Part shown: one piece after another, positions 2,752 to 55,873 of the stretch
Layout: each line of letters starts with the position of its first letter
How positions within the stretch are numbered: the stretch's first letter is position 1
Assembly: GCA_963739795.1 (NCBI GenBank)
Contig: CAVUBL010000010.1
Location: 178,799 to 242,798, forward strand
Reading direction: 5' to 3'
DNA length: 64,000 nt
Origin: an uncultured Acidobacteriota bacterium
Lineage (GTDB): Bacteria; Acidobacteriota; Thermoanaerobaculia; Multivoradales; DATKCC01
Program-made: the position numbers and the translations under genes
Notes under the pieces: model-generated
Databases searched by the model: none
Seen by the model: only the letters and a program-made list of their open reading frames with translations
Told to the model about the DNA's origin: nothing

Positions 2752-4242
<1,491 letters not shown>

Positions 4243-15415: not shown

Positions 15416-17290
15416 TCACTTCGGGTCCTCGAGGTCCTCGAGATCGACGCTGGTCGAGCCCCAGGCGCCGGTGGCCAGGTCCTCCACCAGCACCACGCCC
15501 CACGCCGCGCCGGAGGGGATCTCGACGCGGCCGGCGATGGGCACGAGGGCCGGCGCCTCGGCCGCCGCCGTCTCCCGCCCCAGCTCCACGATCTCCGGCG
15601 GGCCGACCCCGTCCCCGGTGCCGGTTCCCGCCGGCGCCGCGATCCCCAGCGTCGCCCGAAAGACCGTGTCCCCGTCCGAGCTCCCGAGGCTCGAAAGGTC
15701 GGGCTCCGCCACGACTCGAGCCTCCCCGGCGCCGGTCCCGGGGTGTGCCCAGGCGGTGACCTTCAGCTTGCCGGCGGACGGCGCCGCCTCGGCGAGGAGC
15801 CGGCGCAGGCGGGCCGCGGCCACCGTCGGCGGCGCTCCGAAGCGGACCCGGGCCGGTGCCTGCACGTCCACCCGAGGCCGCGACGAGGCCACCTCCAGCT
15901 CGTGGAGCTCGCCGTCGGGCAACCCCGGAAGCTGCACGGTGGCGATCACCCGGCGATCGAGGGCCGCGAGAGCCGCGTCCATGTCCTCGGGCCGGCTGAC
16001 CACCACACCGGCGCTGCCCCGGGCGAGGAGGGTCGGGCCGGCCGCCGGGGCTCGGGGGAGCGCCGCCGCCGCGGGAACGTCCACGACCGCGTCCGGGTCC
16101 CGCCGGGCCGCCTTCGCGTAGTAGCGCCGCGCCTTGCCGGCGTCGCTCCGGCCTTCCCAGCTCCGGGCGATGAGCACCAGGGCCCGGGCCTGCTCGTTGG
16201 CGGTGCGGGGGTCCCTGGCGAAGTGCACCAGGGCCCTCTCGGCGGCTTCGGCAGCGCCCTCGAGCTCGCCCTGGCCCAAGCGGGCGGCAGCAAGGTCCAG
16301 GTAGGCGCGGGCGCGCTTCGGATCTCGGTCCTCCTCGTAGGTCGCGCCGCCCAGGAGCGCACCCAGGAAGATCGGCACCCGGCTGCGGGCGCCCAGACCG
16401 AACCGCCATTTGCCGATCCGCCATCCCGGCACGAGTCCGGAGCCCTCGAGCCGGACCAGGGGCTGGACGAGCCAGCCGTAGGCCGCCAGCGTGTCGGAGA
16501 GCTCGGAGGCCGGGGGAACCAGGGCGGCGGTCCCCGGGCCAGGGCTCTCCCCTTCGGAGGTGACCGGCGTCGGATCGAAGCCACCGGCGGTCAGGAAGAC
16601 GCAGCGCCGAGCGCTCGAGCCCGCCCCGCGCTCGACCAAGGCCAGCAGCAGGGTGTCGAGGCGCCGCTGGAAGAGGGTGACCTCACGCGCCGCGTCGAGC
16701 CGCCGGAGGGCCGCGCGCTCTTCGGTCCCCTGCGCAGAGCGGAGCTCCTGGAGGGCTTGGAGGCGCAGGGTGACCAGGGCGTCCTCTCCCCGGGGCTGAA
16801 GCGCGAGCCGGGCGAGGGCGGTCTCGAGAGCCGCGGCGTCCCGGGTCGGGTACACGAGCGTCCTCGGCCGGGGATCGGCCACCACCAGCTCGATCTCGCC
16901 TCGGGAGACCAGGTCGTCGAGGTGGTCGAGGAGCTGGGAGGCGGCCCATGCGACCTGGCCCTCGTCGGCCAGGACCAGGTCGAAGTAGAGGACGATGCGC
17001 GCCGGAGCGGCGGTCTCGCCGGGCAGGTCCAGGCTGACGACGGGGCGCGGCTCGCCGTCGATGCGCACCGCGAGGTCGGAGGGCACAAGGTCAGACGGCG
17101 ACCGGCTCCGATGGGCCAAGACCGGGAGGCCGCTTCCCGACACGTCGAGGGCGATGTCCACGGCGGTGACCCGCTCCTGACCGCGGAAGGCGCTCGGGGT
17201 GTGGGGCGGGTCGGACGGCCGGGCGCCGGCCGGCGGGGCCGCGGCGAAGAGGCAGGCGGCGAGGTACAGGACGGAGGGGAATCGTCTCAT
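15416..17290 (-). CDS. secreted vWA-domain protein with C-terminal TPR (Acidobacterial VWFA-related type)
   Basis: Signal peptide (MRRFPSVLYLAACLFAAAPPAGA), a MIDAS-like DVSGSG motif near the N-terminus, and TPR-like repeats at the C-terminus. The start is taken at the Met beginning the signal peptide. Confidence 0.7.
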   Translation of the reverse strand: MRRFPSVLYLAACLFAAAPPAGARPSDPPHTPSAFRGQERVTAVDIALDVSGSGLPVLAHRSRSPSDLVPSDLAVRIDGEPRPVVSLDLPGETAAPARIVLYFDLVLADEGQVAWAASQLLDHLDDLVSRGEIELVVADPRPRTLVYPTRDAAALETALARLALQPRGEDALVTLRLQALQELRSAQGTEERAALRRLDAAREVTLFQRRLDTLLLALVERGAGSSARRCVFLTAGGFDPTPVTSEGESPGPGTAALVPPASELSDTLAAYGWLVQPLVRLEGSGLVPGWRIGKWRFGLGARSRVPIFLGALLGGATYEEDRDPKRARAYLDLAAARLGQGELEGAAEAAERALVHFARDPRTANEQARALVLIARSWEGRSDAGKARRYYAKAARRDPDAVVDVPAAAALPRAPAAGPTLLARGSAGVVVSRPEDMDAALAALDRRVIATVQLPGLPDGELHELEVASSRPRVDVQAPARVRFGAPPTVAAARLRRLLAEAAPSAGKLKVTAWAHPGTGAGEARVVAEPDLSSLGSSDGDTVFRATLGIAAPAGTGTGDGVGPPEIVELGRETAAAEAPALVPIAGRVEIPSGAAWGVVLVEDLATGAWGSTSVDLEDLEDPK

Positions 17291-17517
17291 GGCGCGCTCT
17301 CCGGGGGCGAAGGGCCGAGCCCGCAAGGCCGATGCCAGCCCGAACGCCGCCGGTGACTCGAGCCTACCGCTCGCGAAGGGCGCCGGAGCGTATCGCGGCG
17401 AAACCTGGAGGCCAAGTCCGCGCCCCCATGGGCCTCCAAATGCGTTAGCCTAGGGGTCTGCGCGAGCCGGCCGAGTCCTCGGCCGGTGGGATCTAAATTC
17501 ACCGGGAGAAAGTTGGT

Positions 17518-22480: not shown

Positions 22481-22570
22481 TGAGAGCTCGTCTCTTCCTG
22501 AAGCTCCTGGCACTTCGCGGCGTGGGATGAGAGGATCTCTCCACTGAGAACAGACCGCGGGAGAGGATCG

Positions 22571-23149
22571 ATGAACGCAAGGACGAGGAGACGATGTGGC
22601 GTGGTGGCCGCGCTGGCTCTGACGGCGGCTCTGGCGTGGGCCGGACCGGCGAAAGCGGCGAGCGCGGAGGAGGACCGGGGGCCCGCCCTGGGCTCATTCC
22701 CTCCGGACTTCAGCCTCCAGGGGCCGGACGGCCGGACGATGAGCCTGACCGAGTTTCGGGGCCGTAAGCCGGTGGTCCTGATCTTCTTCCGCGGCACCTG
22801 GTGACCGTTCTGCCGCGCGCAGCTCGTGGAGCTGCAATCACACCTCGAGGAGATCGAAGGCCTGGGCGCCCAGGTCCTGGTGGTGGCGAACGACGACCCG
22901 GCGAAGATGGCCGCCTTCCGCGGGGCAAACGGCCTCCGGTTCCCCATGTTGGCGGATCCGGGGGGCAAGGTCATCGAGAGCTACGGCATCCGCAACCAGA
23001 AGGTCACCGACCGGGTCCTGCCGGACCCGACGGCCCTGGTGCTGGACCGTGAGGGGAAGGTCCGGTACAAGCGGATCGACGTGGACTACACAGTCCGGCC
23101 GCCGGCGGAGGAGCTGGTCAAGGCCCTTCGCGCACTGAAGGGGAGCTGA
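22571..23149 (+). CDS. secreted thioredoxin-fold (AhpC/TSA/redoxin-like) protein with in-frame TGA at 22802..22804, candidate selenoprotein (UxxC)
   Basis: ORFs 22571..22804 and 22826..23149 are in the same frame and separated only by a TGA. The joined product reads ...VVLIFFRGTW-U-PFCRAQLVELQ...VLVVANDDPAKMAAFRGANGLRFPMLADPGGKVIESYGI..., so the TGA replaces the first Cys of a W-C-x-x-C redox motif. N-terminal signal peptide. Hairpin 15 nt downstream. Confidence 0.55.
22819..22835 (+). other. candidate bacterial SECIS-like hairpin (GCAGCUC-GUG-GAGCUGC), 15 nt 3' of the in-frame UGA
   Basis: Perfect 7-bp GC-rich stem with G and U in the small apical loop. Its position relative to the UGA is within the range seen for bacterial SECIS elements. 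Confidence 0.35.
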
Positions 23150-38460: not shown

Positions 38461-38535
38461 TGGGGCGTCGCCAAGTGGCAAGGCACGGGACTTTGGATCC
38501 CGCATTCGTAGGTTCGAATCCTACCGCCCCAACCA
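38461..38535 (+). tRNA. tRNA-Gln (anticodon UUG)
   Basis: Cloverleaf folded by hand. The 7-bp acceptor is UGGGGCG/CGCCCCA and the D-stem is the 3-bp type typical of tRNA-Gln. The anticodon stem is CGGGA/UCCCG with loop CUUUGGA, and the T-arm is GUAGG-UUCGAAU-CCUAC. Discriminator A and an encoded CCA. Confidence 0.9.
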
Positions 38536-52632: not shown

Positions 52633-52635
52633 CCC

Positions 52636-54471
52636 GTGAGCGTTCCTGCCGTCCATTCCATCGTCGAGGAGAAGATCCGGTCCCTGCCGGACCGCCCCGG
52701 GATCTACGTCTTCAAGGACGCCCGGGGCAGGGCGCTGTACGTGGGCAAGGCCAAGAGCCTCAGGAAGCGGGGAGCCTCCTACCTGACCCGCGGCCACGAC
52801 CCGCGGATCGAGGCGATGCTCGCCGAAGCCCGGGACCTGGACTTCGTCCTCACGGACTCGGGGGCCGAGGCCCTCTTGCTGGAGAACAACTGGATCAAGA
52901 CCAAGCGCCCGCGCTACAACATCCTGCTGCGCGACGACAAGACCTACCCCTACCTCAAGCTCACCGCCGATCCCTTCCCGCGCCTCGCCTTCACCCGCCG
53001 CATTCGCGACGACGGCGCCGAGTACTTCGGGCCCTTCATCCCCGGCGGGCGCGCGCGCAAAGCGATCAAGCTCACCCAGAAGCTGTTCGGCATCCGGGTG
53101 TGCCGGATCGAGATCGACGGCACCTTGCCTCGGCCCTGTCTGTACTACGACATGCACCGCTGCCTGGGGCCCTGCGTCGCCGGACTCACGACTCCGGCTG
53201 CCTACGCGGAGGGGATCGCCGAGGCGCGCCTGTTCCTGTCGGGCCGGACCGACCGGCTGGTCAAGCGCATGAAGCGACGCATGGGCACCGCAGCCGAACG
53301 CCTCGATTTCGAGGAGGCGGCGCGCCTGCGCGACCTGATCGCCGAGGTCGAAGGCCTCACCGAGCGCCGCAAGCTCTCCTCGGTGGCGGGGGAGGACGTG
53401 GACGTGTTCGGAGTGCACGCGGCGGGGGACCATGCGGCCCTCACGGTGCTGGTCATGCGCGGCGGCCAGATCCTCGACCGGCGCGAGCTGTTCTGGGAAG
53501 GGATCGGCGAGGTGACCGCCGAAGGGCTCCTGTCGGAGGTGGTCCCCCAGATCTACGACCGCACGACCTTCATCCCCAAGGAGGTCCACCTGCCGGCGCC
53601 GGTGGAGGAGCCCGAGGCCCTCGCCGAATGGCTCTCGGAAAAGAAGGGTGAGCGGGTCTACGTGCGGATGCCGTCGCGGGGGCCGAAGGCGGACCGCGTG
53701 GCGCTGGCGGGACGGAACGCCGAGATGGCCTGGAAGCGCCGTTTCCGCCAGGCCCGGGAGCCCGCGGCCGGCGCCGAGGCTCTGGCCCACCACCTCCACC
53801 TCCTCGAGCCCCCACGCCGCATCGAAGGCTTCGACATCTCCACCTTCCACGGCGGAGAGACCGTGGCCTCGGTGGTGGTCTGGGAGGAGGGACGGATGCG
53901 CAAGCGCGAGTACCGAAGCCTGAACATCCGCGGCCTCGAGGGAGAGGCCGACGACTTCTTCTCCATGGGCCAGGCGGTGGAGCGGCGGTACCGCCGGCGC
54001 CTGGACGAGGTGGGCGAGATGCCGGAGCTGATCCTCATCGACGGCGGCCGTGGGCAGCTCAACGCCGCCCTGGAGGCCCTGGTCGCCCTGAGAGTGGAGG
54101 AGACGCCCATCGTCGGCCTGGCCAAGCGCGAGGAGGAGCTCTACTTGCCCGAGCGGCCCGAGCCCCTCCGGCTGCCCCGCGGCGACGCCGGCCTCCAGCT
54201 CTTGCAGGAGATCCGCGACGAGGCACACCGCTTCGCCGTCGCCCGCCACCGCAAGCGGCGCTCGAAGCGGACCCTGCGCAGCCGCCTGGACGACCTGCCG
54301 GGAGTGGGTCCGCGCCGGCGCCGGCTTCTGCTGCGGCGGTTCGGAAGCGTCGACGGCGTGCGCAGCGCCGAGGTGGCGGCGCTCCAGGAAGTCCTGGGTC
54401 CGGTGGTCGGTCGCAGGGTCTGGGAGGGGCTGCGTCCGGAGGCCGAGCGGCCGGACGCTCCTTCGGCTTGA
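52636..54471 (+). CDS. uvrC: excinuclease ABC subunit C
   Basis: GIY-YIG domain (PGIYVFKDARGRALYVGKAKSLRKR), UVR domain, RNase H-like endonuclease domain and C-terminal HhH. Confidence 0.9.
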   Translation: MSVPAVHSIVEEKIRSLPDRPGIYVFKDARGRALYVGKAKSLRKRGASYLTRGHDPRIEAMLAEARDLDFVLTDSGAEALLLENNWIKTKRPRYNILLRDDKTYPYLKLTADPFPRLAFTRRIRDDGAEYFGPFIPGGRARKAIKLTQKLFGIRVCRIEIDGTLPRPCLYYDMHRCLGPCVAGLTTPAAYAEGIAEARLFLSGRTDRLVKRMKRRMGTAAERLDFEEAARLRDLIAEVEGLTERRKLSSVAGEDVDVFGVHAAGDHAALTVLVMRGGQILDRRELFWEGIGEVTAEGLLSEVVPQIYDRTTFIPKEVHLPAPVEEPEALAEWLSEKKGERVYVRMPSRGPKADRVALAGRNAEMAWKRRFRQAREPAAGAEALAHHLHLLEPPRRIEGFDISTFHGGETVASVVVWEEGRMRKREYRSLNIRGLEGEADDFFSMGQAVERRYRRRLDEVGEMPELILIDGGRGQLNAALEALVALRVEETPIVGLAKREEELYLPERPEPLRLPRGDAGLQLLQEIRDEAHRFAVARHRKRRSKRTLRSRLDDLPGVGPRRRRLLLRRFGSVDGVRSAEVAALQEVLGPVVGRRVWEGLRPEAERPDAPSA

Positions 54472-54495
54472 TCTCGGGATAGACTGTCCCTTCGT

Positions 54496-55314
54496 ATGAT
54501 GGGAAAACTCGCCACGATCCAGGTCCTGTCCCGCTTCCAAGAACGGGTGCGCCGGGACCTGGACCGCTCGCCTCTGGATCTGGACTCCGATACGCACCGG
54601 CGCCGGCTCGCGGAGATCCTCGTACGCTGTGGCCGCGACACCCACTACGAGTTGCTGGGCGTGTCCCCCGGGGCCGGCGAGAGCGAGGTGCATTCGGCCT
54701 ACCTCCGCCTCGCCCGCGAGGTCCACCCGGACCACGCCGACCACCTCGGCCTCGGCGGGCGCCAGGGGGTCATCGAGGTCCTCTTCGAGCGGGCGACGGA
54801 AGCCTACCTGGTGCTCTGCGACCCCCATCGGCGCAGCGAGTACGACCGCTGGGCCGCCGTCGAGTCCCGGCGGACGGAGGAGGAGCGGCGCGAGGAGGCC
54901 CGCGACCTGACCCGCGATCTGGTGGCTCGGGCCGCCATCCTGGTCGACCGGGAGGACTACCACTTCGCCTTGGAGATCCTGCGCCAGGCGGTGCGCACCG
55001 ATCCGGAGTCCCACGAGGCCTGGGCGCTCCTCGGCAGGGTCCAGGCGCGCAACCCGAAGTGGCTGCACATGGCTAACGACAACCTGCGGCGCGCGATCGA
55101 GCTCGCGCCGGACCAGATCGAGTACCGCTACGCCCTGGCCGAGGTGGAAGAGAAGCGGGGGCGCCGCGAGCCGGCCCTGCGGCTCTACGAGCAGATCCTG
55201 GAGAGCCTTCCCGGCCACCCCCTGGCCACCGAGGCCCGCGACCGCTTGGCCAGCAAGCTCAAGGCGGAGACCAAGGAGGGCCGGCGGGGTGCCGGGCTCT
55301 TCCGCAAGCGCTGA
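54496..55314 (+). CDS. DnaJ-domain (J-domain) protein with TPR repeats
   Basis: J-domain (HYELLGVSPGAGESEVHSAYLRLAREVHPDHAD, HPD present) followed by TPR-like repeats. Confidence 0.75.
   Translation: MMGKLATIQVLSRFQERVRRDLDRSPLDLDSDTHRRRLAEILVRCGRDTHYELLGVSPGAGESEVHSAYLRLAREVHPDHADHLGLGGRQGVIEVLFERATEAYLVLCDPHRRSEYDRWAAVESRRTEEERREEARDLTRDLVARAAILVDREDYHFALEILRQAVRTDPESHEAWALLGRVQARNPKWLHMANDNLRRAIELAPDQIEYRYALAEVEEKRGRREPALRLYEQILESLPGHPLATEARDRLASKLKAETKEGRRGAGLFRKR

Positions 55315-55433: not shown

Positions 55434-55855
<422 letters not shown>

Positions 55856-55873
<18 letters not shown>

Follow-up and report, generated by a model that had tools for sequence, protein, structure and literature searches.

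We analyzed a 64,000-nucleotide (nt) stretch of DNA from an uncultured Acidobacteriota bacterium (contig CAVUBL010000010.1; hereafter, the window) that carries a candidate selenoprotein gene on the forward strand at 22571..23149. The gene appears as two open reading frames (ORFs), 22571..22804 (starting with ATG, 77 amino acids [aa]) and 22826..23149 (starting with GTG, 107 aa), and public gene calls cut it accordingly into 77-aa and 107-aa ORFs. As an initial annotation of this DNA had claimed, translation places both ORFs in a common frame, with the TGA at 22802-22804 as the sole intervening stop. The translation product of 22571-23149 (+) is 192 residues long with this one internal stop, in the context ...VVLIFFRGTW*PFCRAQLVELQ... 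(the asterisk marks the TGA), and the terminal stop is also a TGA, at 23147-23149.

When read through, the coding sequence is complete at 192 residues, including a putative selenocysteine (Sec) at position 78, and orthologues share its architecture. A putative Shine-Dalgarno element, GGAGAGG (22560..22566, +), lies 4 nt before the ATG. The first 96 nt (22571..22666, +) encode a predicted N-terminal export signal, which was recognized in the translation by an Arg-rich n-region, a hydrophobic core and AKA/ASA, with an approximate cleavage site. Close orthologues have equivalent export signals, of which that of L006 contains a lipobox (VAG|C), and signal peptides occur in most family members. These signal-like N-termini suggest that the product is exported. 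In a Pfam search of the full-length product, made with Cys put at the TGA, an AhpC-TSA (PF00578) thioredoxin-fold domain was found at residues 45-166 (22703..23068, +; E=5.8e-33, 113.9 bits versus a cut-off of 26). The domain extends across the UGA, and the read-through product also matches Redoxin (E = 1e-24). The earlier description of a secreted AhpC/TSA/redoxin-like product of about 192 aa therefore agrees with the domain and length, and also with the predicted signal.

Conservation of the TGA codon and selection downstream of it

In protein searches, the top matches were only proteins of 106-110 aa, which cover the C-terminal 55% of the query. Because all best matches correspond to this C-terminal part, other assemblies carry the same split call. 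When we translated the contigs of these matches upstream, every one contained an in-frame TGA at W-*-P-[FY]-C. TGA occupies this codon in every distinct close orthologue, at least seven in number (L001, L002, L005, L006, L007, L011-L014 and L016); these orthologues come from independently assembled Thermoanaerobaculia/Acidobacteriota metagenome-assembled genomes (MAGs). Some of the TGA-bearing loci are syntenic with the window, with a glutamate dehydrogenase gene upstream and a convergent CN-hydrolase gene downstream. L006, at about 59% identity, has a different neighborhood and the same in-frame TGA.

The ratio of nonsynonymous to synonymous substitution rates (dN/dS) among close orthologues is 0.17-0.47 over the 108 codons after the TGA, so the apparent downstream ORF is translated and under purifying selection. 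Over the 41 codons before the TGA, dN/dS is mostly 0.25-0.58, and of the four comparisons that involve L006, two give 0.85-1.1.

A broader scan used one genome per GTDB species and two patterns, of which one was [FY]CR[AT]QLV[EQ]L and the other required TGY. It found 437 relatives, and the best 80 loci were kept. The nearest of them belong to MAGs labelled Acidobacteriota or Thermoanaerobaculia, which makes this class the most likely origin of the window. TGA occupies the Sec codon in about 85 of the 88 gene copies in these 80 loci, although the ratio of Sec to Cys forms is biased, since the pattern [FY]CR[AT]QLV[EQ]L enriched for that motif. TGA-bearing copies span at least eight phyla and were found in Acidobacteriota, Planctomycetota, Chloroflexota/Dehalococcoidia, Acidimicrobiia, Binataceae, Armatimonadetes, Verrucomicrobia and Thermodesulfobacteriota. 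The cultured planctomycete Tundrisphaera lichenicola P12 (L017, TGA at 3196; NZ_CP195106.1, about 2,587,922) is among the carriers, and the TGA is retained in species down to 32% identity.

Three copies (L048, L052 and L074) have TGC or TGT at the Sec codon. The L074 copy (L074:3226, from Candidatus Sulfopaludibacter sp. SbA3) has TGC and keeps both CRTQLVELQ and a perfect hairpin of the type described below; it looks like a recent Sec-to-Cys conversion. An exhaustive search of representatives with the C-terminal part of the protein returned many entries truncated to about 100 aa, representing further Sec forms, and many full-length Cys homologues. The latter show W-C-P-[FY]-C at the TGA column, for example RSADWCPYCRQQL and FRGAWCLFCRAQL. 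The TGA column thus corresponds to the first Cys of CxxC, which bears out the original proposal that the TGA replaces the codon of the nucleophilic Cys.

Additional TGA-containing genes were seen in some loci. Two Dehalococcoidia genomes carry tandem paralogues, each with its own TGA and hairpin (L040, TGA at 2500 and 3187; L078, TGA at 2409 and 3112). In L043, a different AhpC/TSA-like gene (FVRHFG*MFCREQVAQL, TGA at about 4748) is located roughly 1.5 kb from the family member, and probably encodes another UxxC selenoprotein, with different downstream sequence.

TGA is also the commonest stop codon in the window, ending 22 of the 37 ORFs with a coding signature. As it is the main stop in the window and terminates the selenoprotein gene itself, the genetic code is not reassigned. 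When the window was searched for further in-frame TGAs flanked on either side by coding signal, only gene junctions and off-frame artefacts emerged. For example, the TGA at 54469-54471 was considered as a second recoding site and rejected, as it is the junction of a complete uvrC gene (52633-54471) and a DnaJ-TPR gene (54472-55314).

A conserved hairpin downstream of the UGA

The hairpin GCAGCUC-GUG-GAGCUGC is located at 22819-22835 (+), and is exactly the perfect 7-bp stem (22819-22825/22829-22835) with GUG apical loop (22826-22828) that had been reported initially. Fourteen nt separate the UGA from the stem, which begins at the 15th nt, and the hairpin folded alone has a ΔG of -10.1 kcal/mol. 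As a membership test, we used the criteria of a bacterial Sec insertion sequence (SECIS) model (PMC13188914 Fig. 2A): a loop of 3-9 nt, a stem of 4-16 bp, G in the first two loop positions, a UGA-to-loop distance of 16-37 nt and a minimum free energy of at most -7.5 kcal/mol (PMC13188914). With a 3-nt loop, a 7-bp stem, GU at the start of the loop, 21 nt from UGA to loop and -10.1 kcal/mol, the window hairpin lies within every one of these limits. No such hairpin follows the terminal TGA of the gene. Searches against Rfam, with gathering and E-value thresholds, matched no family to the hairpin and found nothing relevant at the locus.

To assess conservation, we aligned 81 sequences without gaps over TGG TGA plus 42 nt. 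The stem occupies columns 21-27/31-37 and the spacer length is fixed. The apical loop is G-U-N, in which U is invariant and G nearly so. Bases are paired in 93.1% of cells, versus 86.6% in column shuffles, and none of 500 shuffles reached as high a value; in controls with slid partners, pairing falls to 8-44%. RNAalifold recovers the same 6-bp core and, in addition, only an invariant four-pair helix without covariation.

Double changes are found in four of the seven stem pairs. Pair 24:34 is GC in 64 sequences and AU in 11, pair 25:33 is CG in 71 and UA in 4, and neither is ever broken. Pair 21:37 is GC in 63 sequences, UA in 6, CG in 1 and something else in 5, and the apical pair 27:31 is CG in 33, GC in 12 and unpaired in 30. 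In pair 24:34, column 24 is a Gln third position (CAG/CAA) and column 34 a Leu first position (CTG/TTG); pair 25:33 similarly joins a Leu first position (column 25) to a Glu/Gln third position (column 33). Coupled changes from CAG/CTG to CAA/TTG are therefore synonymous on both sides. They recur in Isosphaeraceae, Dehalococcoidia, Armatimonadetes and Phycisphaeraceae, which are unrelated lineages. Changes that are both synonymous and recurrent in this way indicate selection on the RNA, not on the protein. Taken with the published criteria and the conservation of the element, this synonymous covariation sustains the earlier suggestion that the hairpin is compatible with a minimal bacterial SECIS.

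Decoding of the UGA and genomic context

What the data establish is a single ORF, a UGA that is conserved and under selection, a hairpin that is likewise conserved and that covaries, and the fold family. From these comparative data, we consider it very likely that the UGA at 22802-22804 is decoded as Sec, and we strongly favor the fuller interpretation of a genuine Sec-decoded selenoprotein with the hairpin at 22819-35 as its SECIS. Under this model, the 17-nt hairpin with its GUN loop, 14 nt past the UGA, would function as a minimal bacterial SECIS, bringing SelB-GTP and Sec-tRNASec to the ribosome while the UGA enters the A site. We infer that Sec rather than another residue is inserted and that insertion depends on SelB.

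Several results, in addition to the bias of the scan noted above, weigh against this interpretation. Of the window's 994 TGA trinucleotides, only 15 (1.5%) precede a perfect hairpin of 7 bp or more with SECIS-like geometry, but shuffled sequences fold as stably as the whole 59-nt region (z = 0.32). The hairpin by itself is therefore moderate evidence, and the comparative evidence is decisive. In 30 of 75 sequences, the apical bases do not pair. Codons for Q-L-x-E-L-Q are self-complementary by nature, and Cys homologues contain similar peptides; some of the pairing is thus a consequence of the protein sequence, and the family was probably predisposed to evolving a SECIS. Within the 64-kb window, tblastn with Escherichia coli SelA, SelB and SelD detected no selA, selB or selD homologue, and no tRNA-Sec was found. 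Finally, no NCBIfam model reaches its cut-off for the window protein or for four other family members.

Some of these points suggest that the hairpin at 22819-35 might be a mere by-product of the QLVELQ peptide and GC-rich codon usage, with the real signal being elsewhere or different. CAG-CTN-NNN-GAG-CTG is intrinsically palindromic, and such an origin would also accommodate the QL.ELQ-like peptides of Cys homologues, the shuffling result and the hairpin retained by the Cys form in L074. However, all 15 of the 15 changed cells at pairs 24:34 and 25:33 are compensatory synonymous double changes with no single-sided breaks, and they are distributed over several unrelated lineages. In addition, GCU-Ala co-occurs with ACN-Thr at pair 21:37, a rare CAA codon is kept in GC-rich genomes, and RNAalifold found no other conserved covarying structure. 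We therefore regard a by-product as quite unlikely.

Another explanation is that the UGA is recoded, but not as Sec. The inserted residue could be Cys, carried by a tRNASec-like tRNACys (selC*), or one supplied by an acidobacterial allo-tRNA acting as an opal suppressor; in a variant of this idea, insertion might switch between Sec and Cys with selenium supply. Transfer RNAs of these kinds, that is, tRNASec-like tRNACys and allo-tRNAs, have been described in Deltaproteobacteria and Acidobacteria (PMC5389517), and the lack of Sec machinery within the window would fit their use. Against this, the hairpin, with its conserved loop GU, conforms to the SelB-type SECIS model, the family occupies many phyla, not all of which have been reported to have such tRNAs, a selD gene with its own Sec-UGA adjoins the family member in L067, and the position of a redox Cys is a typical Sec site. 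We judge such recoding to be highly improbable, and we think equally little of the broader possibility that the UGA and hairpin direct non-canonical decoding instead of, or besides, Sec insertion. The alternative that the initial annotation itself had raised, namely a pseudogene, recent nonsense mutation or sequencing error in which translation would end at the TGA and the second half of the gene would be decaying or unexpressed, might draw on the split gene calls and on the missing Sec machinery, but the same TGA in independent assemblies and across the gene copies of many phyla excludes an error or a recent mutation, and the intact frame, the dN/dS after the TGA and the Pfam domain that spans it leave this explanation effectively refuted and extremely improbable.

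With regard to Sec decoding, the machinery is presumably encoded in the source genome, because the UGA, the SECIS and the downstream ORF have been under sustained selection. Searches of 60 fetched loci for tRNA-Sec found none, and those 60 loci were without any tRNA. Over all fetched loci, the only match of E. coli SelA, SelB or SelD in tblastn was a selD gene in L067, a Vicinamibacterales MAG. This gene (1459-2313, +) is located about 1 kb downstream of the family member at 4-453. Its active site contains an in-frame TGA of its own (LSTSAG*ASKL), which makes the product the Sec-containing form of SelD.

The neighbors of the selenoprotein gene in the window have housekeeping roles: NAD-glutamate dehydrogenase, CN-hydrolase, aminotransferase and ketoacyl synthase. 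Across 82 loci, no neighbor gene is conserved across phyla; no partner emerged because the large clusters are made up of the selenoprotein gene itself translated off-frame or in antisense. There are no cytochrome-c maturation genes near the window gene, and a promoter and terminator scan around it gave nothing informative. A long imperfect inverted repeat (22380-22422/22457-22499, with 43-nt arms that are 74% complementary) covers the glutamate dehydrogenase stop together with the intergenic sequence that precedes the selenoprotein gene, and might act as a terminator or in regulation. It is not conserved universally, given an intergenic region of only about 30 nt in L002. Elsewhere in the window, the only structured RNAs found were a class A RNase P RNA (55440-55871, +; 260.9 bits) and a tRNA-Gln(TTG) (38461-38535, +). 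A 677-aa ORF at 15419-17449 (-) has a strong coding signature and no Pfam match at E <= 1e-5.

Redox center and relation to known families

The redox motif U-P-F-C (UxxC; 22802..22813, +) comprises U78 and C81. By sequence, the nearest solved structures are 2ywn and 2cx3, which are BCP/PrxQ-type peroxiredoxin-like proteins, and Mycobacterium tuberculosis AhpE (4xih/1xvw), with E-values from 4e-17 to 2e-14. In alignments to 2ywn, 2cx3 and 4xih, Cys81 is opposite the peroxidatic Cys of peroxiredoxins (Prx), and Sec78 takes the place of the Thr in the Prx T-x-x-C motif (PxxxTxxC). Pro153 (23027..23029, +) is opposite the catalytic Arg, which is the Arg of AKRAVFVID in 2ywn. It belongs to an invariant D-P-T motif (P151, D152, P153 and T154 are all invariant in the family alignment), and is probably the cis-Pro of the thioredoxin fold. 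With Thr and Arg both replaced, two of the three residues of the peroxiredoxin catalytic triad are missing. The site resembles a thioredoxin-type W-C-x-x-C center with a Pro-Thr loop, of the kind found in ResA and TlpA.

These features bear on whether the product is a genuine peroxiredoxin, that is, a peroxidase, and not a thiol:disulfide oxidoreductase. AhpC-TSA as the top Pfam match, the BCP/PrxQ-type and AhpE proteins as nearest structures and C81 at the peroxidatic Cys all favor a peroxidase. On the other hand, the replacement of the triad Thr and Arg by Sec and Pro, a WUxxC motif as in TlpA/ResA-type proteins, the fusion of some family members to DsbD_N and the failure of all peroxiredoxin NCBIfam models to reach their cut-offs argue for an oxidoreductase, and we consider a true peroxidase unlikely. 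DsbD_N is a periplasmic thiol-disulfide relay module. It occurs as a C-terminal domain (PF11412, 44 bits) in L023, L027, L051 and L074, which suggests a built-in relay partner for these proteins. In all four, the domain lies in the C-terminal ~170 residues, which end in ...YQACDDKVC...

We therefore propose, with moderate confidence as to this specific redox role, that the protein acts as a thiol:disulfide oxidoreductase; the product would most likely be a periplasmic selenol/thiol:disulfide oxidoreductase, not a classical peroxidase. In the substrate reaction that we infer, Sec78 would attack an oxidized substrate, which could be a disulfide or possibly a sulfenate or peroxide, and Cys81 would resolve the intermediate to give an intramolecular Sec78-Cys81 selenenylsulfide. 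The redox partner would be a membrane thiol-reductant pathway of the DsbD/CcdA type, which would reduce the selenenylsulfide again.

Selenoproteins of the AhpC/TSA type with UxxC have long been known and are abundant (PMC13188914, PMC2398784). The Prx-like thiol:disulfide oxidoreductase selenoprotein family is characterized by PF00578 together with UxxC/UxxU (PMC9312934, PMC13188914); it was first reported by Kryukov & Gladyshev in 2004, and its reference member is WP_010940744.1 (PMC13188914 Table 1, PMC9312934). In the GOS survey, "Prx-like 1 (pfam00578, UxxC)" ranked with the most abundant selenoprotein families (PMC2398784). The window gene has both PF00578 above the gathering threshold and U78-P-F-C81 at the CxxC position, and by these domain and motif criteria is classified as a predicted member of this family. 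Given that UxxC Prx-like selenoproteins have been known since 2004 and are abundant, it is an unannotated member and involves no new mechanism.

The clade with the signature W-U-P-[FY]-C-R-[AT]-Q-L-V-E-L-Q, which covers at least eight phyla, has a near-identical 17-nt SECIS and includes occasional DsbD_N fusions, may nevertheless be a distinct subfamily; this is likelier than non-canonical decoding. The clade is captured by no NCBIfam model, and gene calls systematically cut it into two ORFs. The best NCBIfam model for the window protein is NF040769 (SelL-related redox protein), at 67.5 bits versus a cut-off of 120; with the same model, other family members reach 41-62 bits. Other scores below threshold are 54.6 versus 170 for ResA, 28.4 versus 230 for TlpA and 17.6 versus 123 for DsbE. 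These low scores may explain the split public annotation, which affects the window gene, hundreds of MAG relatives and at least one cultured planctomycete. Such calls conceal both a selenoprotein and the dependence on selenium of lineages that are abundant in soil (Thermoanaerobaculia, Vicinamibacterales, Isosphaeraceae and Dehalococcoidia). Moreover, this family has an unusually clean and compact SECIS of 17 nt, which lies at a fixed distance from the UGA and covaries at synonymous sites; it might be used as a model or tool in work on recoding beyond Proteobacteria and Firmicutes.

In E. coli, SelB binds a minimal 17-nt upper hairpin of the SECIS, in which G and U of the loop are essential. 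Like the E. coli fdhF-type SECIS, the window element is a short hairpin within the coding sequence just past the UGA, with G-U in the apical loop. It differs from the fdhF type in having no bulged U and a spacer of 14 nt rather than 11 nt, and in its loop of 3 nt (GUN), which widens to 5 nt if the apical bases are unpaired.

At the protein level, the window gene product shares with the Prx-like selenoprotein family the AhpC/TSA domain, Sec as the first residue of UxxC and the existence of many CxxC homologues. The reference member of that family comes from Geobacter. Peculiar to the window clade are the very conserved W-U-P-[FY]-C-R-[AT]-Q-L-V-E-L-Q signature, the signal peptide and a distribution in soil Acidobacteriota, Planctomycetota and Chloroflexota. 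Proteins of NF040769, which are relatives of the eukaryotic Prx-like UxxU protein SelL, share the Prx-like fold and the location of the redox motif, but the window protein has UxxC instead of UxxU and falls outside the NCBI threshold. BCP/PrxQ-type peroxiredoxins and AhpE resemble it in fold and in the peroxidatic Cys at C81, whereas the window protein has Sec for Thr, Pro for Arg, a CxxC-type motif and a predicted export signal. With ResA, TlpA and CcmG (DsbE), it has in common an exported thioredoxin fold, as predicted, W-C-x-x-C and a Pro-Thr loop before the next strand; it differs from them in that the first Cys would be Sec, and in that their models match it significantly but below threshold.

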